Below are positions 30,993-42,765 of a DNA stretch of 64,000 nt, piece after piece; positions within the stretch are counted from its first letter, which is position 1; each line of letters begins with the position of its first letter. Below the pieces are notes generated by a model. That model was given only the letters and a program-made list of their open reading frames with translations. It was not told the origin of the DNA and did no database searches. The position numbers and the translations under genes were made by a program. The stretch is from Deltaproteobacteria bacterium (GTDB lineage: Bacteria; Desulfobacterota; Syntrophia; Syntrophales; UBA8958). Where the stretch lies: positions 21,426-85,425 of the forward strand of contig JAKPCH010000059.1 of NCBI GenBank assembly GCA_029553375.1, in the 5' to 3' direction.

Positions 30993-31994
30993 TCAGACGC
31001 CCTCCTTCAGGAAGCGCCGCGCCACTTCCTCGGCGAGGGTGTAGGGATCCGTCTTCTTGTCCATCAGTTTCTGGATCATCCCCTCGATCTCCCCCTCCGC
31101 CACGAGGTGGTTGAGGATGGGCTCGAGGACGCAGGACCTGATGGCCTCGTGGAGCTCCACGGCGGCCTTGCGCCGGATCCGCGAACCCAGCAGGTCCTTG
31201 GCGACGAGGTGCTCGTGGTGCTTGGCGATGGTGTCCGTCAACTCCTCCATGCTCTTCCCGAACGAATCGGGCTCGAAGGCGTTCTCCACCCGCACGATGG
31301 GCGGCCGCCAGCCCGAGGCGAACGTCTCGGGGGGGGCCATGTCCAGCATGGCCATGATCTCCCGGCGGAGCTTGGACGACCCCTCCCGGTCGGCCTTGTT
31401 GATGACGAAGACGTCGGCGATCTCCATGATCCCCGCCTTGATGGCCTGGATCTCGTCGCCCATGCCGGGGATCAGGACGACCAGGACCGTGTGGGAGTGG
31501 TTGATGATGTCCACCTCCTGCTGCCCCGTGCCGACGGTCTCCACAAGGATGACGTCCATGCCCATGACGTCCATGACGTGGATGGCGTCACCCACGGCCT
31601 TCGCCAGGCCGCCGAGGGCGCCCCGGGTCGCCAGGCTGCGGACGAAGACCCCGGAGTCTTCCGCGTGGCGCTGCATGCGGATCCGGTCGCCGAGGATGGC
31701 ACCGCCCGTGAAGGGGCTCGTGGGGTCCACGGCCAGGACGCCCACGGTCTTGCCCCGCTTGCGGAACTGCTCCACCAGACCGTCGACGAGGGTGCTCTTC
31801 CCCGCCCCCGGCGACCCCGTGATCCCCACGACCTGGGCCTTGCCCGTCAGGGGAAAGAGGTGCTTGATGGTGGAACGGGCCTCCTTGACGCCGTCCTCCA
31901 GGTTCCTGATGAGGCGGGAAGCCGTCCTCACGTCCCCAGCCTTGATCTTTTTTACCTTTTCCATGTCCTCGCTCTCATTCTCTGGGTTTGACAT
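30993..31994 (-). CDS. meaB: MeaB mutase-associated GTPase chaperone
   Basis: GSPGAGKST, AVDPTSPFTGGAILGDRIRM, ETVGTGQ, NKAD. Confidence 0.92.
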   Translation of the reverse strand: MSNPENESEDMEKVKKIKAGDVRTASRLIRNLEDGVKEARSTIKHLFPLTGKAQVVGITGSPGAGKSTLVDGLVEQFRKRGKTVGVLAVDPTSPFTGGAILGDRIRMQRHAEDSGVFVRSLATRGALGGLAKAVGDAIHVMDVMGMDVILVETVGTGQQEVDIINHSHTVLVVLIPGMGDEIQAIKAGIMEIADVFVINKADREGSSKLRREIMAMLDMAPPETFASGWRPPIVRVENAFEPDSFGKSMEELTDTIAKHHEHLVAKDLLGSRIRRKAAVELHEAIRSCVLEPILNHLVAEGEIEGMIQKLMDKKTDPYTLAEEVARRFLKEGV

Positions 31995-32379
31995 TATTGT
32001 TTATCCACTCGACGATGCTGTCCAGGGTCGCCCCGGGCGTGAAGATGGCCTTGATGCCGTTGTCGTAGAGGTACTGGAAGTCCTGGTCGGGGATGATGCC
32101 GCCCCCGATGACCATGATGTCGTCGGCGCCGCGCTCCACGAGCTGCTTCTTCACCGCCGGGAAGAGGTAGCGGTGGGCGCCCGAGAGACAGCTCAAACCC
32201 ACGAGGTCCACGTCTTCCTGAATGGCGGCGGCGGCGATCTGCTCCGGCGTCTGGTGACAACCCGTGTAGATCACCTCGAACCCCGCGTCCCTGAAACAGC
32301 GGGCCAGAACCCTCGCACCCCGGTCATGACCGTCCAGACCCGGTTTCGCGACCATCACGCGCAGTTTTCTCTCTGCCAT
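31975..32379 (-). CDS. Acyl-CoA mutase small (cobalamin-binding) subunit
   Basis: KPGLDGHDRG (DxHxxG), SCLSGAH, GGII; start MAERK at 32379. Confidence 0.92.
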   Translation of the reverse strand: MAERKLRVMVAKPGLDGHDRGARVLARCFRDAGFEVIYTGCHQTPEQIAAAAIQEDVDLVGLSCLSGAHRYLFPAVKKQLVERGADDIMVIGGGIIPDQDFQYLYDNGIKAIFTPGATLDSIVEWINNNVKPRE

Positions 32380-32411
32380 AAGCGTCGTTCCCTCCTCATG
32401 CACTCGTAATA

Positions 32412-34100
32412 TCAATAGAGACCCGGATCACGGTATTCACCGTAGACTTCCCTGTAGACGTCGCAGATCTCCTGGACGCTGGCCAGGTTCTTGACCGCCT
32501 CGATGCAGTAGGGCATGACGTTCTCGCCCTTCTTGCAGGCGTTCTTGAGGTCTTCGAGGCATCTCTTGACGGCCTTGTTGTCCCGCTTGCGGCGGACGGC
32601 GTTGAGGCGCTCGATCTGCTCGATCTCCACCCGGTCGTCGATCTCCACGAGGGGAATGGGCTCCTGGACCTCGCTGACGTACTTGTTGACGCCGATCATG
32701 ATCTTCTCGCCCGCGTCGATCTGGCGCTGGAACTTGTAGGCGGCGTCGGCGATCTCCAGCTGGGGGAAGCCCTTCTCGATGGCCGCGATCATGCCGCCCA
32801 TCTCGTCGATCTTGTGGATGTACTCCCAGGCCTTCTCCTCCATCTCGTTCGTGAGGGCCTCGACGAAGTAGGAGCCCGCCAGGGGGTCGATGGTGTTGGC
32901 CACGCCCGTCTCCTCGGCGATGATCTGCTGGGTCCTGAGGGCGATCTGGACGGCGTGGTCCGAGGGGAGGCAGAGGACCTCGTCGAGGGAGTTGGTGTGG
33001 AGGGACTGGGTACCGCCCAGGACGGCCGCCAGGGCCTCCGTGGCCGTGCGGATGACGTTGTTGTAAGGCTGCTGGGCCGTGAGGGAGCAGCCCGCCGTCT
33101 GGGTGTGGAAGCGCATCCACCAGGAGCGCGGATCCTTCGCCTTGTAGCGGTCCCTCATGGCCTTGGCCCAGATCCTCCGGGCGGCCCTCATCTTGGCGAT
33201 CTCCTCGAAGAAGTCGATGTGGGAGTTGAAGAAGAAGGAGAGGCGGGGGGCGAAGGAATCGACGTCGAGGCCCTTGCGGCGGATGACGTCCTCCACGTAC
33301 TCCATGCCGTCCCTGAGGGTGAAGGCCAGCTCCTGCACCGCCGTGGAGCCCGCCTCCCGGATGTGGTAGCCGCTGATGGAGATGGTGTTCCACTTGGGGA
33401 CGTACTTCGTGCCGAACTCGACGGTGTCGCTGATGAGCTTGACCGACGGCTCGGGGGGGCACATGAGGGTCTTCTGGGCGATGAACTCCTTGAGCATGTC
33501 GTTCTGGATGGTCCCGCCGATCTTCGTCAGGGGGATGCCCTTCAGATCCGCCGCGGCGCAGTACATGGCCCACAGGGCCGTCGCCGGCGGGTTGATCGTC
33601 ATGGAGGTGGTGACCCTGTCCAGGGGGATGCCGTCGACGAGGGTGAGGAAGTCCTCCAGGGTGTCGATGGCGACGCCGCACTTCCCGCACTCGCCCCTGG
33701 CCTTGGGGGAATCGGTGTCGTAACCCATGAGGGTGGGGAAGTCGAAGGCCGTGCTCAGGCCCGTCTGCCCCTCCTTGAGGAGGAGGTGCCAGCGGGCGTT
33801 CGTCGTCTTGGCGTCCCCCATGCCGGAGAACATGCGGAAGGTCCAGTACTTCCCCCGGTAGCCCGTCACCTGGTTGCCCCTGAGGAAGGGGAACTGGCCC
33901 GGATAGCCGATGTCCCGCTCGAAGTCCATGTCCTTGATGTCCTCGGGACCGTAGAGGCGCTTGATCTTGAGGTCCGAGACGGTGGACCACAGATGGTCCG
34001 GCTTCTGGTCCGGGTTCTTGGCGATGACCCGGCGCACCTCATCCTCCCACTTCTGCCTCAGTACGCTGGATTTCTCCAGCACTTCCGCTGCAAAGTACAT
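32412..34100 (-). CDS. B12 acyl-CoA mutase large subunit, isobutyryl-CoA-mutase-like
   Basis: [46 protein letters not shown]; Phe91 and Gln209 at the specificity positions. Confidence 0.9.
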
Positions 34101-34464
34101 AACTACACCCTCCTTACACGATAGATTTTAATGCCTACCTCAAAAAACCCCCAAAAACTTATCCGTACCCGATCCAGGACCCCCACGGGCAAGATCTCCC
34201 CGCGGACCGATCGAGGCGTAGGCTGAACGGAAGCTGTGATTTGCCATGTACTTTGAAAGGCGAGAGGAAGCATGGCCGAGATACTTTTCTACCCACTGAA
34301 TTGCTATTACGGTTCGTCAGGTTTGTCAAGGGAAAAGGCACGGGCCGATACGAAGCCGCCCCCGCGTCTCCCGGCCTTGCGGGAGAAGGGGGGCGGTCGA
34401 GGGGTCGTCCTGCGGCGTCACGGCGGGCCTGCCGGTTTCGATCCCCGCCGCGGCCCGCCGCGCG

Positions 34465-35913
34465 TCAATCTTTCAAACCCATGATCTTTTTCGCCATCTT
34501 CTTCTTGGCCTCGAAGTCCGTCAGGACGGTGAACATGAACCGCTGGGTCTGGGGGGCCCCGGCGCCGTGCCACGTCCCCGGGCCGTGGAGGCCGGCGGAC
34601 CAGTGCTGGAGGAACTTGGCGACCTTGAGGCGTTTCTCCGCCGGGGCGACGGCGCCGAAGGCCTTCTTCAGGGCCGGGCCCACCTCGGGGTCCTCGAGGT
34701 CCTTGATCCGCGGCATGGTGACGACGAGGCCGCCGCCGATGTCGCCGGCGTTCTTGATGATCTCCCAGAAGCCGTGGGCGATGTTGAGCTTCGCGGCGTT
34801 GCCGAAGAGGTCGTCGGGGAGATAGACGCCCGAGCCCTTGGGCTCCTCCCTCCCCCTCATGGCGGCGGCGATGGCGCAGGCGTGGGAGGTCTCGCTGTAG
34901 CGCAACATGTCGATGATCTTCTCCTGGATGTGGGGCACCTTGTCCACGCCGATGTACTCGGCGGCCAGGAGGGTCCCGCCGATGATGAGGTCGGCGAAAC
35001 CGACCTTGCAGGCCCCGCCGCAGTTCATCCGGTGGGCCTTGGCGAAGCGGGTGACCATCCTCCCGCAGTACTTCGTCTCCCCGCAGAGGAAGACCCTCTC
35101 CCAGGGGATGAAGACGTTGTCGAAGTACATCGTCGACGTCTCCCGCTGGCCGTAGAGGGGATTGCCGAGTTCGTACTCGTCGTCGCACATCTCCCTCTCC
35201 GCCGAGTAGGCGTTGTACTGGCAGATGTACGAAAGGCCGGGGGCGCTGTTCTGGACGGCGAAGGCGAGGGCGAATTTCTCCTCCCCCTCCCGCAGGGCGC
35301 CGCCGGGGAGGACGAGGGTCTCGTGGGAACCGATGGCGCCGCTCTGGCTGACCTTGATCCCCCGGACCACGATCCCGTCGTCGCGCTTTTCGACGAGATG
35401 GACGAAGGTGTCGATCTCGTCCTGCTGGGAGGGCCGTTTCTTCCGGTCCCCCTTCGCGTCCGTGATGGCCCCCGACACGGCCAGGTCGTTGGCCTGGGCG
35501 TAGGCGAGCCACTTGTTGAACCGCTCGTTGTAGTTCGTCCCCAAATCGCGGTCCATCTCCCAGGTCGTCGAGGCGAGGCTGTTGAGGGCGTCGCAGCCCA
35601 CGCAGCGGTAGTTGCACGTCCCCACGGTCTGGCTGGTGAGGAGGGCCATCTCCTGGCGCATGTCGAGGTCGTGGATGCTGCGGGCCACGTTGAGGTTGCG
35701 GTTGATGGGTTCCCCCGTGAGGTGGGAGGAGGCCACCATGACCTCCTTGTGGGCCGGGTCCTCTGCCAGACCGTAGATGGCCGCGTTGGCCAGGACCATG
35801 GAGCGGGTCACGGGGTTGTCCAGGAGGTTGTCCACCCACTTGCCCCCGATGTAGACCCGCGGTTTCATCTTCCTGATGGTGTCCAGGTATTCCTTTTCCG
35901 TCTTCAGTGCCAT
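34465..35913 (-). CDS. 4-hydroxybutyryl-CoA dehydratase / HpaB family FAD-[4Fe-4S] enzyme, divergent
   Basis: TCNYRCVG, TDAKGDR, DNVFIPWERVFLCGE, HRMNCGGACK, HGAGAPQTQR; start MALKT at 35913. Confidence 0.85.
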   Translation of the reverse strand: MALKTEKEYLDTIRKMKPRVYIGGKWVDNLLDNPVTRSMVLANAAIYGLAEDPAHKEVMVASSHLTGEPINRNLNVARSIHDLDMRQEMALLTSQTVGTCNYRCVGCDALNSLASTTWEMDRDLGTNYNERFNKWLAYAQANDLAVSGAITDAKGDRKKRPSQQDEIDTFVHLVEKRDDGIVVRGIKVSQSGAIGSHETLVLPGGALREGEEKFALAFAVQNSAPGLSYICQYNAYSAEREMCDDEYELGNPLYGQRETSTMYFDNVFIPWERVFLCGETKYCGRMVTRFAKAHRMNCGGACKVGFADLIIGGTLLAAEYIGVDKVPHIQEKIIDMLRYSETSHACAIAAAMRGREEPKGSGVYLPDDLFGNAAKLNIAHGFWEIIKNAGDIGGGLVVTMPRIKDLEDPEVGPALKKAFGAVAPAEKRLKVAKFLQHWSAGLHGPGTWHGAGAPQTQRFMFTVLTDFEAKKKMAKKIMGLKD

Positions 35914-35975: not shown

Positions 35976-36314
35976 TCACGTCTCCGCCGCCGCCTCGATG
36001 ACGCAGCACGCCTCGCCCTTCCCGCCGGGGAAGGCCACGATGTTGACCAGGGCCTTGTCCATGACGGCGGCCAGCTCCTCCCGCGACCGCCGTCCCCGGA
36101 TGGTCAAGGTCAGGCGCCTCCCCGCCCGGTCGGCCCCGGCGAGGATATCCTCGGCGGCATACCCCGGGAGGGTGTTCTTGGCGAGGCACGCATAGGCGAA
36201 ACTGGCGAACGTACCGGCCAAACCCTCGTATAGGCCCCAGAGTTGGCCGTTTACGACCAGGGCGATGACCTCCGTGTCTCCCTCGCCCAGGGGCGAGATG
36301 GGCGTCTTTTCCAT
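35976..36314 (-). CDS. Hypothetical protein
   Basis: Starts 4 nt after the reductase stop; host-like codon usage. Confidence 0.6.
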   Translation of the reverse strand: MEKTPISPLGEGDTEVIALVVNGQLWGLYEGLAGTFASFAYACLAKNTLPGYAAEDILAGADRAGRRLTLTIRGRRSREELAAVMDKALVNIVAFPGGKGEACCVIEAAAET

Positions 36315-36318
36315 GGCC

Positions 36319-37650
36319 TCACAGGCTCCTTGCCAATTCCTGGGCCGCCACGTGGATGGCGTCCCAGGCCCCCCCGAAGGGCGGGGCGTAGGGCAGGTCG
36401 AGATAACCCACCTCGTCCACCGTCATGCCGTTCCAGAGGGCCGCGGAGAGGGCGAAGATCCTCTGGACGGCCCCCTTGGCGCCCAGACACTGGGCCCCGA
36501 TGAGGCGGCCCGTGGTCTTGTCGGCCGTGAGCTTCACGAGGAGCCTCTCGCCCCTCGCTATGGGCCGGCCCACGGGGAGGCCCTGGATGAAGGCGCTTGC
36601 GGGGGCGAAGCCGTACTTGACCGCCTCGTTCTCGTTGAGGCCCGCGGCCGCCACCTCGAGGTCGAAGACCTTGAAGGACTGGGCCCCGACGACGCCGGGA
36701 AACTCCGCCGGCCGTCCCCCGATGTTCTGACCCGCCACCCGCCCCTGCTTGTTGGCGATGTCCCCCAGGGGTATGTAGACCCAGCGGCGGGCGACCTTGT
36801 GGAAGACCTCGCAGCAGTCCCCCACGGCATAGATCCCCGGGACGGAGGTCTGCTGGCGGAAATCCACCTTGATGGCACCGCTTTCCCCCATCTCGACGCC
36901 GGCGGCCGCGGCGAGTTCCGTGTTACTCCTCACACCCACGGCCATGAGGACGAGATCGGCCCCCAGGTCGCCGGAGTTGGTTTTCACCACGAGGCCCTCC
37001 CCGTTCCTCTCGATGGAGAGGGGGGTGGTACCACCCTGAAAAAGGACACCGTTCTTTTCCAACTCTTCCAGGATGGGGGCGCAGAACTCCTCGTCCCAGC
37101 GGGGCACGGGCCGGTGCCGCCTAACGATGACCGTCGTCTCGATGCCCAGGTTGCGCAGGGCCTCGGACATCTCCATGGCGATGAAACCGCCGCCGACGAT
37201 GACGGCCCGGCGGCAGGCCCTGCCGTTCAGATAGTCCTTGATGCGCAGGGCGTCGGAAAGATCCCGCAGGACAAAGACGCCGTCCAGGTCCACCCCGGGG
37301 ATGTCGAGGCGGGTCGCCCGGGCCCCCGTGGCGATGGTCAGGCTATCGTAGGGGAGGCGGGAGCCGTCGGCGAGGCGGACCTCACCCCTGGCCGCGTCGA
37401 TCTCCTCCACCCGCGTCTTCGTGAGGACCTTGATCCCCGTCTTCCCGAACGCCTCGGGAGTCCGGATCACCAGCTTGTTGTAGTCTTTTATTACATCGCC
37501 GATGTAATAGGGCATCGGTCAAGCGGCATAGGAGACGAACTCCCCCGCCTCGATCATCGTGACCTCCAGGGACTTGTCCCGCCGCCTCGCCTCCGCCGCC
37601 GTGGACGGTCCGGCGGTGCCGCCGCCGACGACAATCAATTTTCGACCCAT
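36319..37650 (-). CDS. CoA-disulfide reductase/NADH oxidase-family flavoprotein, selenoprotein (Sec44)
   Basis: GGAGG-ATG at 37650 gives MGRKLIVVGGGTAG...FVSYAA(UGA)PMPYYIG, in frame with ORF 36319..37515; also ATGA, GGGFIA, YAVGDC, DLPYAPPF. Confidence 0.88.
37489..37509 (-). promoter_or_regulatory. Bacterial SECIS-like hairpin
   Basis: mRNA UAUUACAUC-GGC-GAUGUAAUA: perfect 9-bp stem with G-containing loop, starting 9 nt after the UGA (37521-37519). Confidence 0.75.
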
Positions 37651-37735
37651 TTTTACCTCCTTCATTGACGGATTTATTGACGGATCCGGGTTTGCATCGG
37701 TATCGACGCCGGGACCCTCGATCCCGGACGAGATC

Positions 37736-38284
37736 TCAACCCTTCAGGTTCTCCACGTTCTTCCCGAAGGGCCGCGACGCCGCCTCATCCCGGTCGGTAT
37801 AGATCAGCTCCGCCGCCAGGCCCGCCGCCTCGGTGATCAGCTCCCGGCAGAAGAGGGCGTGATCCCGGCAGAGCCAGCTGTGTTGCCACTGGGCGGTTAA
37901 GTCCCGGCAGAGGGTCTTGCCGTGCTTCTCGTAGAAATGGTTGGGGATGACGTTGAACAACCGGTAGAGACCCGGTCTCCCGTAGAGCTGTTCCGTGGCT
38001 TTCTTGACCAGCTCCTTGCCTTCCCCCTCGGGGAGGGCGCTCCGGCCGTGGACGGCCCCCACGGCCAAAACGGCCCCCGCGATGGCCCCGCAGGTGTCGC
38101 CGAAGAGGCCGATGCCCCCGCCGAAACCCGTGGCGACCTTCTTCACCTCCGGGGGCAGCCCCGTTTCCGCGAGGCTCAAGACCGCCTCGGTCACACACTC
38201 CGCACAGTTGTAACCCAGGGAGAAATTCTTCCGGGCCCGCTGGCGGATCGCCTCGATCTTCTCTTCCCGCGTCATGCCGTGCAC
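37736..38284 (-). CDS. C-GCAxxG-C-C family putative redox-active protein
   Basis: YNCAEC, GFGGG, TCGAIAG, LCRDL, FCREL. Confidence 0.85.
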   Translation of the reverse strand: MHGMTREEKIEAIRQRARKNFSLGYNCAECVTEAVLSLAETGLPPEVKKVATGFGGGIGLFGDTCGAIAGAVLAVGAVHGRSALPEGEGKELVKKATEQLYGRPGLYRLFNVIPNHFYEKHGKTLCRDLTAQWQHSWLCRDHALFCRELITEAAGLAAELIYTDRDEAASRPFGKNVENLKG

Positions 38285-38406: not shown

Positions 38407-39657
38407 CTACAAAGCCATGAGGTACGAACGGAGGTTGGCCTTACGGTGTTTCAGGCCCACCTTCCTACGGATGTTGTTCCGGTGGACGTCGACAGTCCGG
38501 GGGGAAATGCCGAGGAGTTCCGCCATTTCCTTCGTCGCGCGGCCCTCCTTGATGAAGGTGACGATCTTCAGCTCCATGGGTGTGAGGTCGGGGTGGCGGG
38601 AGTAGAGGGTCCTGAGGAAGGGAGAGGTGATCTCGTTGAGGTGCCGCTCCAGGATGGCGAGCTGGTTGGCCTGGTGGGCGTTGAGGGGCGAGGCCTTGAG
38701 GTTCTCCACGTAGGGGAGGATTAGCTCCCGGATGTTGTGGACGACCTTCTCCTCCAGCTCCGCCCGGTCCTCGTCCCGGCGCCTGAGGAGGACCTTGAGG
38801 GCCGTGTTGGCGTCTTCGAGGTTCCGGGACTTCTCCTCCAGCTCCCGCTCCCGCCTCCTGAGGGCCTCCTCCATCTTCTTCCGCTCCGTGATGTTCCGGG
38901 CGATGCCGTGAATGGCCGTCGGCTGTCCCTCCGCCGCCACGATGCGGGCGTTGACCTCCAGCCAGACCGTCTCCCCCTCCCTGGTGAGGGTGCGAAACTC
39001 CTGGGTCGCCTCGTCGTCGCCCCGGACGAGGCGTTGCTGGAGGAACTCCCGGGCGAGGGGCAGATCCTCGGGATGGACGAGATCGGCGATCGAGAGGCGC
39101 CGGAACTCCTCGGCACTGTAGCCGTAGGTCCGGGAGGCGGCGGCGTTGCACGACCGGATCCGGCCCTCCAGGTCGAGGATGAAGATGACGTCGTTGGCGT
39201 TCTCGAAGAGTTCCCGGTACTGACGCTCCGACTGCCTCAGGGCCGCCTCGGCCCGGCGGCGGTCCGTGATGTCCGTGACGATCTCCACGACCCCCGTGAC
39301 GGCGCTGCCCCCGTCCCGGACGGGGTAACTGCGCAGGACCCAGTTCTTGCCGTAGGAGGAGAGATCGAAGACCTCGTGGGGCCTGCCGGTGCGGAGGGTC
39401 TTGGCGGCGGGACAGACCCGGCAGATCCGGTCCCGGCCGTGGAGGGTGCGGTAGCAGTGGGAGCCGTCGAGGCTCCCGGGGGGTAGGTTGAAGGCCTCGT
39501 GCATGGCCTTGTTGGCCCAGATGACCCGCATGTCCCGATCGAGGTAGAGGACCAGCTCCGTCATGGCGTCGAGGATGACGGCCTTTTCCCGTTCCGAGCG
39601 GGAGGTCCGACGGACGGGACCCGATCCTCCCCTCCCCTTTTCCGCCCTTTCCGGCAT
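38407..39657 (-). CDS. PAS-PAS-LuxR HTH regulator
   Basis: Two PAS domains (the first with CY...CRVCP) and LTPME...TVDVHRNNIRRKVGL. Confidence 0.88.
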   Translation of the reverse strand: MPERAEKGRGGSGPVRRTSRSEREKAVILDAMTELVLYLDRDMRVIWANKAMHEAFNLPPGSLDGSHCYRTLHGRDRICRVCPAAKTLRTGRPHEVFDLSSYGKNWVLRSYPVRDGGSAVTGVVEIVTDITDRRRAEAALRQSERQYRELFENANDVIFILDLEGRIRSCNAAASRTYGYSAEEFRRLSIADLVHPEDLPLAREFLQQRLVRGDDEATQEFRTLTREGETVWLEVNARIVAAEGQPTAIHGIARNITERKKMEEALRRRERELEEKSRNLEDANTALKVLLRRRDEDRAELEEKVVHNIRELILPYVENLKASPLNAHQANQLAILERHLNEITSPFLRTLYSRHPDLTPMELKIVTFIKEGRATKEMAELLGISPRTVDVHRNNIRRKVGLKHRKANLRSYLMAL

Positions 39658-40884: not shown

Positions 40885-41667
40885 TCACTTCACCTTACGG
40901 TTGAGGAAGTAGCCGTCGGGGTCGCACACCTCGCGCAGCAGGCGCAGGTCCTCGGCCGTCGGCTCGGCCATCTCCTTCAGGTCCGGGGAGACGAGGAGGT
41001 CGAAGCTCACCAGGTCCTGGATGTCCTTGGCCGTCTTGCCCGGCAGGACCTCGAGGAGGACCATCCGCTTCGTCTCCTCGTCGAAACCGAAGAGGGCCTG
41101 GTTGGTGATGACCCGGTAGGGTCCCTGACCCATGACCCCCGCCTTCTCGCGATAGTCGGGGGAGCCGTCGCCGTAGCCGATGCTCGTCAAGAACTCCACC
41201 TTCTCCACGAAACGCCGCTTCTCGAGGGCCATGATGATGATGGACCGCTCGCAGTTGGCCGCCATGGCCCCGGCGCCGCCGCTCCCGGGGAAGCGGGTCT
41301 GGGGGCGGTCGTAGGTCCCCCCCTCGAAGGTGGAACAGACGTTCCCGTACATGTCGATCTGGGCCCCGCCGATGAAGGCGTAGTCGGAGTAACCCCGCTG
41401 GGTCAGTTCGAAGACGGCGCAGAGGCCCTTGAGGTAGCAGGCCTTGCGGCACGCCCTCGTGTCGCCCACGGAGAGGGGCATCCCCATCTCGAGGATGGGG
41501 CTCAGGGGACCCGACTCGAAGATCATGGCCAAGTTGGGGGCATGGGTCAACTGGGCGTGCATGGAGGCGATGATGGGCAGTCCCGTCCCGACGAAGACGA
41601 TCTTTTCGTCCTCGAGGACGCGGGAACCCGTGTAGGCAATCATCTCAAAGGGTGTATATTCAGGCAT
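40885..41667 (-). CDS. Family I CoA-transferase subunit B (GctB-like)
   Basis: VFVGTGLP, FESG catalytic Glu, GGAQIDMYGN, FPGSGGA. Confidence 0.88.
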   Translation of the reverse strand: MPEYTPFEMIAYTGSRVLEDEKIVFVGTGLPIIASMHAQLTHAPNLAMIFESGPLSPILEMGMPLSVGDTRACRKACYLKGLCAVFELTQRGYSDYAFIGGAQIDMYGNVCSTFEGGTYDRPQTRFPGSGGAGAMAANCERSIIIMALEKRRFVEKVEFLTSIGYGDGSPDYREKAGVMGQGPYRVITNQALFGFDEETKRMVLLEVLPGKTAKDIQDLVSFDLLVSPDLKEMAEPTAEDLRLLREVCDPDGYFLNRKVK

Positions 41668-41691
41668 GTGTCTTGACCTCCTTGTGCTTTT

Positions 41692-42765
41692 CTATGAAAG
41701 GATGATGGGCTGGCCGCCGTCCATGTCCTTGATCTTCCTCAGGGTCTTGTAGGGGAGACGGCCGAGGAAATCGTCGAAGGTGTCGCAGCCGAAGATGTAC
41801 TCGTCGTAGTACCTCTTGAGGTTGTCCTTGTTGCCCGTCCGGCGGAACTCCTCGCAGAGGGAGCGGAACTTGAGGATGTGTTCCATGTCGAACCAGTAGA
41901 AACCGTAGGAGGCGCCGGGATAGGCGCCGAAGGGCTGTTCCACGAGGGCGTCCACGGCGGCGTAGGGGATCTCCGTGAGGTTCGGGTAGGTGCGGACGTT
42001 CTCGTTGGGGATGATCCGCTCCGTCGTGACGATGCTGTACGTGGCGGCCATGGTGATCTCGGGGCAGGTGCAGTGGGCCCCGAAGATGCGGCAGTTGCCG
42101 TACATGTCCGCCGCCGTCACGTGGACGATGGCCACGTCGGGGTGACAGGCCGGGACGAGATAGACGTTCTTGCCGCTGAACGGGCAAACGACCATTTTTC
42201 CCCGGTTCACGAGCTCCATGTCCGAGCCGCCGTGGTCCCGCGTGGGGATGAAGGGGACGCCCATGGCCGCGGCCTTGAAGCGGGCGGACATGCCGTAGTT
42301 GGTGTAATCGTCCAGGCGGATCATCCCCCGGGAGGTGAGGTACCTCAAGAGGGGGGCGATACCGATGACCTCGTAGCCCCACCAGGCCAGCTCCACCCTC
42401 TTGATGGAGACGTGGTCGGGGTCCAGGATCATGGCCCCCGCCAGGAGCTCCGCGCAGATGGAGTTGGACTGGAAGGAGAGGGTGAGGTCCTTCGCCCCCT
42501 TGCGGATGATCTCATGGACGATGGCCACGGGGACGCGGGTGTTCACGAAACCCCCGATCCCGATATTGATACCGTCCTTGACGTACTTGGCGACGGCCTC
42601 TTTCAGGGTCGTGCGCTTGTCGTGCATACCCTTGCTCTTGGCCGACATGACCCTGCGGGCCTCTTCCGGGCTGGGCCCCCACCACTCGAAGGGTTCCTCC
42701 GCCAGGGCGGCGTCGTACTTCAGATTGGAAACCTTCTTGATCTTCGATGCCACTTTGTCGTTCAT
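41692..42765 (-). CDS. Family I CoA-transferase subunit A (GctA-like)
   Basis: LKEAVAKYVKDG.NIGIGGF, RFKAAAMGVPFIP, CPFSG, ADMYGN. Confidence 0.85.
   Translation of the reverse strand: MNDKVASKIKKVSNLKYDAALAEEPFEWWGPSPEEARRVMSAKSKGMHDKRTTLKEAVAKYVKDGINIGIGGFVNTRVPVAIVHEIIRKGAKDLTLSFQSNSICAELLAGAMILDPDHVSIKRVELAWWGYEVIGIAPLLRYLTSRGMIRLDDYTNYGMSARFKAAAMGVPFIPTRDHGGSDMELVNRGKMVVCPFSGKNVYLVPACHPDVAIVHVTAADMYGNCRIFGAHCTCPEITMAATYSIVTTERIIPNENVRTYPNLTEIPYAAVDALVEQPFGAYPGASYGFYWFDMEHILKFRSLCEEFRRTGNKDNLKRYYDEYIFGCDTFDDFLGRLPYKTLRKIKDMDGGQPIILS

Follow-up and report, generated by a model that had tools for sequence, protein, structure and literature searches.

The window examined here is a stretch of 64,000 nucleotides (nt) from an uncultured member of the Syntrophales (Deltaproteobacteria bacterium, assembly GCA_029553375.1, contig JAKPCH010000059.1, positions 21,426 to 85,425), and the gene of interest within it (36319..37650, minus strand) encodes a flavoprotein of the coenzyme A (CoA)-disulfide reductase (CoADR)/NADH oxidase family, in which an in-frame UGA is very probably decoded as selenocysteine (Sec, U). 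From its ATG at 37650, with the Shine-Dalgarno sequence GGAGG (37656..37660, minus strand) five nt on its 5' side, the gene extends over 443 codons to a TGA stop (36321-36319), and on the reverse strand of the region 36200-37800 this frame is interrupted solely by the TGA at 37521-37519. The interrupting codon (37519..37521, minus strand; codon 44, in the context SYAA-U-PMPY) occupies the column of the redox-active cysteine, the flavin adenine dinucleotide (FAD)-binding GxGxxG motif (GGGTAG, residues 9-14; 37609..37626, minus strand) lies on its 5' side, and a hairpin that we interpret as its selenocysteine insertion sequence (SECIS; 37489..37509, minus strand) overlaps codons 48-54 (YYIGDVI). 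A mechanical list of table-11 open reading frames (ORFs) restarts instead at ATG 37515, which yields a product of 398 amino acids (aa), and holds a further ORF of 48 aa that ends at the TGA. An earlier sequence-only reading of this DNA had proposed a selenoprotein at the locus: its placement of the ribosome-binding site, the ATG at 37650, GGGTAG, the codon-44 TGA and SYAA-U-PMPY on the minus strand proved accurate throughout, as did its remark that the listed ORF begins at 37515 and is devoid of the FAD-binding motif. The observation on which that reading was built is thus confirmed, and its selenoprotein interpretation is supported by the analyses described below.

A UGA in the column of the redox-active cysteine

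Orthologues of the gene (50-73% identical to the window protein over residues 1-443) start on a matching methionine (MGKK/MSQK...), are conserved at the protein level along the 43 codons that precede the TGA, and end with in-frame stops at 442-447 aa, the window gene ending with a TGA itself. Within the same order, 38 of the 41 genomes scanned had a match at E <= 1e-60, and among the 32 matches with at least 51% identity, 26 carried exactly one TGA and six carried none; at the level of the phylum, matches at E <= 1e-80 were recovered from 148 of 401 genomes, with one TGA in 41 of the 50 first-listed matches. Eighty of the orthologous loci belong to metagenome-assembled genomes of Syntrophales, Syntrophaceae, Smithella or 'delta proteobacterium'. 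The codon-44 column was taken from 134 orthologous loci (L020-L163, with L050-L058 excluded), less one that lay at the edge of a contig, which represent 123 distinct sequences, and it holds TGA in 102 of these, TGT in 13 and TGC in 8. The Sec form is the majority state of the orthologue group (102/123), and the alternation between Cys and UGA that the sequence-only reading had put forward as a check occurs across the orthologues at exactly this column.

At 37519-37521, the contigs of four public runs contain no letter other than those of TGA, so that the TGC or TGT proposed as a refutation was not encountered. Two of the runs are from RNA libraries, and their contigs agree with the window letter for letter around the codon (one contig covers all of 36200-37800); those of two further runs, from other studies, are 95-99% alike, with the differences located elsewhere and none at the codon. 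The truncation by automated annotation that had been anticipated is found in the public record: public protein collections contain precisely this 398-aa product, on 16 contigs. An exact search of the public collections for the read-through sequence with Cys at codon 44 returned no record (records bearing U are undetectable by such a search).

Homology to characterized folds continues across the TGA. The Pfam model Pyr_redox_2 matches without a break from residue 4 to 284, accompanied by Pyr_redox and Pyr_redox_dim, and the closest solved structure (PDB 6ruz, deposited as 'NADH oxidase') aligns over residues 1-438 (325.7 bits), with its VSYGAC-GLPY against VSYAAU-PMPY of the window and its Cys opposite U44. 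The next structures are 6pfz (NoxA-3, 274.3 bits), followed by the coenzyme A disulfide reductases 4fx9/3kd9, and NADH peroxidase matches with 206 bits. All of these resemble the window protein (6ruz over its full length) and differ from it in carrying Cys where it has the predicted Sec. The residue aligned with U44 corresponds to Cys42 of NADH peroxidase and Cys43 of staphylococcal CoADR, a numbering with which the alignment offsets (residue 4 of the query falls on residue 2 or 3 of the chain) agree. Together with the 21 orthologue forms that have TGT or TGC, the aligned Cys of 6ruz bears out the earlier claim that the UGA falls on the redox cysteine of the family, and, judged by these alignments, the gene is intact and encodes a homologue of those flavoprotein reductases that work with a single cysteine (CoA-disulfide reductase, NADH oxidase, NADH peroxidase).

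As for the chemistry, homology would suggest that NAD(P)H reduces FAD, which would then reduce an oxidised Sec44. Among NCBIfam models, those of CoA-disulfide reductases score best (TIGR03385, 382.5 bits; NF007123, 377.5 bits), and since they outscore the model of H2O-forming NADH oxidase (232 bits), we favour a CoA-type function: a CoA-disulfide or persulfide type of reductase that may proceed through a Se-S intermediate, i.e. a mixed selenenylsulfide formed with CoA, a CoA persulfide or a polysulfide. This predicted substrate class is held with about even confidence. Its main competitor retains the same Sec decoding and assigns the protein to the NAD(P)H oxidases/peroxidases, with Sec44 cycling between selenol and selenenic acid (Se-OH) and removing O2 or H2O2 in a strict anaerobe; we regard it as a serious possibility that is nevertheless the less probable of the two. 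The names of the closest structures (NADH oxidase for 6ruz, NoxA-3 for 6pfz) speak for the oxidase/peroxidase, as does the match to NADH peroxidase, and in the case of 6ruz the name tells against a CoA-type function; the 2006 survey (PMC1794560) files the family as 'NADH oxidase'. However, names given by depositors are no assays, the CoA-disulfide reductase models score 382 bits as compared to 232, and (a weak point) the neighbours in the closest clade are enzymes acting on CoA thioesters, not oxidative-stress genes. The preference for a CoA-type reductase has to be set against the curated cut-offs, which both of its models miss (382.5 versus 578.8 bits for TIGR03385 and 377.5 versus 458 for NF007123); since no NCBIfam match reaches its cut-off, the protein does not qualify as an equivalog of a named enzyme.

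The hairpin downstream of the UGA

Nine nt after the TGA starts a hairpin of 9 base pairs (bp), in which UAUUACAUC (37509-37501) pairs with GAUGUAAUA (37497-37489) around the loop GGC (37500-37498); 18 nt (37518-37501) separate the UGA from the loop, and the conserved core comprises 8 bp (37508-37501 with 37497-37490). Folded alone, the 27-nt hairpin has an energy of -7.5 kcal/mol (z = -4.45), and none of 200 shuffles folds as well. The bacterial SECIS consensus used by bSECISearch, as given in a 2026 review (PMC13188914, Fig. 2 legend), specifies a loop of 3-9 nt, a stem of 4-16 bp, a G in the first two loop positions, a distance of 16-37 nt from the UGA and a minimum free energy (MFE) of -7.5 kcal/mol or lower. 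The window hairpin agrees with this consensus in every respect (GGC loop, 8-9 bp, GG, 18 nt, -7.5 kcal/mol) and stands apart within it by a loop of the minimum size allowed and a stem that is AU-rich in a genome of 66% GC.

The pairing is maintained across the orthologues. In an ungapped alignment of 47 TGA forms (46 distinct), evaluated with 500 shuffles and with slid controls, 90.8% of the cells in the helix columns (19-27 with 31-39) are paired; the outermost pair (19:39) forms in nine of the 46 distinct sequences, the window included, and the other eight pairs form in all cells but one. Two pairs covary: 21:37 is UA in 39 sequences, CG in five and UG in two, and 24:34 is CG in 45 and UA in one. 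For covariation score, paired fraction and number of double changes alike, the observed value exceeds those of all 500 shuffles and of all slid controls. The SECIS-like hairpin that the sequence-only reading had placed nine nt after the UGA is therefore exactly positioned, fits the published bacterial criteria and shows covariation in two of its pairs.

The codons that encode the hairpin provide, by comparison of TGA with Cys forms, what we consider the strongest argument for it, namely the freezing of synonymous sites. All 8 bp of the core form in 101 of the 102 TGA forms, as compared with one of the 21 Cys forms. In the TGA forms (n=102), the Ile, Asp and Val codons hardly ever depart from ATC, GAT and GTA at their paired third positions, and the third position of the loop Gly takes T, C, G and A alike. 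The Cys forms (n=21) lose the 3' arm: the residue after Asp is Tyr, Ala, Leu, Thr, Ile, Met or Arg, or else Val encoded by GTC or GTG, the Asp is often GAC, and those that keep the very peptide YYIGDVI use GTC, GTG or GAC instead. In the window gene (67% GC overall, 89% GC at third codon positions), the single GTA among 42 Val codons sits in the hairpin, and the 30-nt segments of lowest GC (33%), with first positions at gene nt 141-155, overlap both the hairpin (gene nt 142-162) and the codons that follow, which substantiates the earlier impression of a hairpin built from atypical, AT-rich codons. As a side observation, in an independent bioreactor metagenome (run X16) the contigs break at the hairpin, and word depth reaches 30.7 in the bin 37490-37549 versus approximately 3-8 nearby; a depth peak of this kind would be expected if a conserved SECIS were common to several co-occurring strains, and the breaks and gaps were not used as evidence.

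Probable selenocysteine decoding, its machinery and its history

The genome of the window (2.40 Mb, 97 contigs, 100% complete by marker genes) contains the apparatus that the decoding would require. A tRNA-Sec was found at 75 bits (cut-off 47; called by ARAGORN as tRNA-SeC with anticodon tca), alongside selA (601 bits), selB (370 bits) and selD (389 bits), all of them above curated cut-offs; the search for selA, selB, selC and selD recommended by the sequence-only reading accordingly recovered the complete set, with selB present twice. The selD gene (G000:C56:66293-67222, L018) has one in-frame TGA itself, and SelD of this genome is probably a selenoprotein as well.

Both SelB paralogues are of full length (635 and 647 aa, 40% identical; contigs C27, L009:1495-3402, and C72, L010:1441-3384, of the window's genome) and possess the GTP_EFTU domain, domain 2, the SelB beta-barrel, SelB-wing_2 and SelB-wing_3; one copy is followed by fdhD, and the other is preceded by ORFs resembling Sulf_transp (YeeE-like) and TusA. 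Two SelB-wing_3 matches were also obtained in four of the 41 relatives (G003, G009, G013 and G015). One could imagine that the paralogues divide the selenoproteome by SECIS class and that the AU-rich hairpin with its 3-nt loop is a client of a specialised second copy, in which case UGA-44 decoding would need a dedicated second Sec elongation factor and not the canonical one; we consider such a division of labour improbable.

According to the established bacterial mechanism, the ribosome would arrive at UGA-44, the hairpin 18 nt downstream, with its GG-containing 3-nt loop, would be bound by SelB carrying guanosine triphosphate (GTP) and Sec-tRNA(Sec), and Sec would be inserted in place of termination; the terminal TGA, at the position where the orthologues also end, would be read as a stop. 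From sequence comparisons we conclude that decoding of UGA-44 as Sec through the AU-rich hairpin is very likely: UGA alternates with Cys, the hairpin is conserved and covaries, the genome encodes the Sec machinery, and homology to the family runs on across the TGA. Several observations weigh against this conclusion. Support for Sec in the polypeptide is at the level of sequence and not of protein; the run evidence consists of contigs and, since DNA may occur in RNA libraries, is no proof of transcription. The hairpin energy coincides with the threshold of -7.5 kcal/mol, five of the eight core pairs are invariant (and, as they never vary, uninformative either way), and the covariation rests on two pairs, one of them double-changed in a single sequence. 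An Rfam scan of 37300-37700 (E up to 10) had no family that reached threshold. Furthermore, no SelB-wing_3 match at E <= 1e-5 was found in two relatives with the TGA form (G018, 100% complete, and G014, 90% complete), which could reflect a divergent SelB or an assembly gap.

A last point of this kind concerns the structure itself, as ViennaRNA prefers for the 42-nt and 71-nt contexts a CCGAUG/CAUCGG stem (-8.2 and -15.7 kcal/mol, respectively) that directly follows the UGA, and this stem, or a larger structure, might be the functional SECIS instead of the AU-rich hairpin. The comparative pairing counts led us to reject it in spite of the MFE preference: its paired cells amount to just 66.7% over the 46 distinct TGA forms, without compensatory changes, none of the five measures rises above the shuffled values (all 500 shuffles reach the observed one), and its loop would lie at 7 nt from the UGA, closer than the 16-37 nt that PMC13188914 specifies. 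The 71-nt fold is, moreover, not unusual (z = -1.52), and we regard this alternative as highly improbable. Still less credit is due to the view that the TGA is a true stop, whether through pseudogenization, through an assembly error, or because the real gene is the 398-aa ORF from ATG 37515. Gene callers do output exactly that product, but it lacks the GxGxxG motif, the codons 5' of the TGA are conserved as protein, and the TGA recurs in 102 of the 123 distinct orthologue sequences and in the contigs of four runs, the remaining orthologues having Cys and not a gap at the column. Least plausible of all is that the UGA specifies another amino acid, by genome-wide reassignment (TGA as Trp or Gly) or near-cognate read-through: nothing specific favours it, the gene and its orthologues stop in frame at the expected 442-447 aa (here by TGA), homologues have Cys at the column and not Trp or Gly, and a dedicated tRNA-Sec is present with selA, selB and selD.

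A FastTree phylogeny built without L050-L060 (among them two Cys forms, L059 and L060) comprises 122 distinct orthologues, 103 of them Sec and 19 Cys. It requires at least 12 changes between Sec and Cys, of which well-supported branches force at least eight, a count that is independent of the root; an outer clade of 22 rows, from other families of the phylum, is entirely Sec. Since the Sec forms share one hairpin, the Cys groups nest within Sec clades and eight of the 21 Cys forms keep seven or eight of the eight hairpin pairs, we infer from this unrooted tree that Sec was repeatedly replaced by Cys. No SelB-wing_3 match was found in the Cys-form genomes G004 and G029, which fits a loss of the Sec trait; G018 and G014, which retain the TGA form and likewise gave no such match, count against a simple rule of trait loss. 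Conversions from Sec to Cys with remnant SECIS elements are described in PMC1794560 (including its Fig. 4 legend) for FdhA and HesB-like proteins, and the present case is alike in its Cys forms scattered among Sec forms and in its hairpin remnants, and unlike in concerning a different protein family.

A second type of SECIS occurs in a paralogous clade (L050-L055, L164-L170, L173 and L175, in genomes of relatives) that is approximately 40% identical to the window protein and has a TGA at the same column, within the motif U-[GSA]-x-P-Y-Y-[VIL]-G, followed by a GC-rich, SECIS-like hairpin (stem of 8 bp, loop of 4 nt). This clade is present in G009, G015, G016, G021, G032 and G035, and had no match at E 1e-60 in the genome of the window. 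A tie between the two SelB copies and the second SECIS type was considered and set aside, as no link is evident (the two sets of genomes overlap only in G009 and G015).

Gene neighbourhood and place in the known selenoprotein family

Downstream of the Sec gene, and starting 4 nt after its stop, lies an ORF of 112 aa (35976..36314, minus strand) with no Pfam or NCBIfam match, for which tblastn detected relatives of 40-50% identity in nine of 63 loci searched; it is followed by an HpaB-family gene (34465..35913, minus strand; HpaB_N and HpaB domains, own ribosome-binding site, ATG at 35913), found at 88-92% identity in 10 of the 63 loci. Among the enzymes of anaerobes that have the HpaB fold is 4-hydroxybutyryl-CoA dehydratase. 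After the HpaB-family gene, the minus strand carries a methylmalonyl-CoA-mutase-like large subunit, a B12-binding subunit and MeaB. Upstream of the Sec gene are an all-Cys putative redox protein of the C_GCAxxG_C_C family (37736..38284, minus strand; Pfam 78.8 bits, TIGR01909 60.9 bits), whose NCBIfam model TIGR01909 is titled 'C-GCAxxG-C-C family (seleno)protein', and, further upstream, a PAS-LuxR regulator (38407-39657, minus strand). A cluster of CoA-thioester enzymes flanks the locus on both sides (30993-35913 and 40885-42765, both minus strand), including, further upstream, two CoA-transferase subunits.

Of 122 orthologous loci, 28 have the C_GCAxxG_C_C gene next to the Sec gene; these belong to a single clade, and the whole block (PAS-LuxR, C_GCAxxG_C_C, Sec gene, 112-aa ORF and HpaB-like gene) is likewise confined to this closest clade (28/122). 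Elsewhere the contexts are others, with lgt upstream in 56 of the 122 loci and TerC downstream in 23. Gene context was rejected as a functional clue since the block is limited to one clade, and, as it varies between clades, no partner is claimed for the Sec gene; its hint at a link with CoA metabolism is at most weak.

The selenoprotein family to which the gene belongs is not new, and is said to have been described originally by Kryukov and Gladyshev in 2004. The 2006 survey (PMC1794560) records an 'NADH oxidase' selenoprotein family with one Sec member, in Geobacter metallireducens, PMC1976440 adds one member in an Olavius symbiont, and two reviews (PMC9312934, PMC13188914) list the family, with WP_011365774.1 of Geobacter metallireducens as reference protein. 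The statement of the sequence-only reading that Sec-containing NADH-oxidase-like proteins are reported in Deltaproteobacteria holds (PMC1794560, PMC1976440). Its description of the selenoprotein as 'hidden' stands for the window record, which is truncated, and falls for the family, which has been listed among selenoproteins for some two decades. Our literature search returned surveys and reviews, and no biochemical study of a Sec-containing CoA-disulfide reductase/NADH oxidase was found.

The window protein shares with the Geobacter reference the Pfam architecture (Pyr_redox_2 and Pyr_redox_dim, with TIGR03385 as the best model), the Sec at the single redox Cys and an anaerobic host of deltaproteobacterial type. 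The 2026 review (PMC13188914) gives UGxP as the Sec motif of the family, and the window reads UPMP, with the same Sec column and the final P kept. The UGxP forms have a GC-rich hairpin with a 4-nt loop and constitute the separate, approximately 40% identical clade, in contrast to the U-P-M-P motif and the AU-rich hairpin with a 3-nt loop seen here; because of the motif given in the review, the Geobacter reference protein probably belongs to the UGxP clade, a placement made from the motif alone. As a selenoprotein family of 'NADH oxidase/CoA-disulfide reductase' is already in print, the window gene is a new and mis-called member of a known family (from an uncultured Syntrophales), forming part of a distinct clade with its own SECIS.

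The existing picture of Sec decoding is left unchanged by this finding, which is useful for annotation and illustrates clearly how codon choice is shaped by a SECIS: it is a clean comparative case of a SECIS located within the coding region, in which seven codons are synonymously frozen in the presence of UGA and drift in the presence of Cys. The public record of the gene is a 398-aa fragment that has neither the FAD-binding motif nor the catalytic residue, and the same truncation probably affects about a hundred TGA-bearing orthologues. Once it is corrected, metabolic models of the syntrophic anaerobes of sludge and digesters regain an intact redox enzyme.

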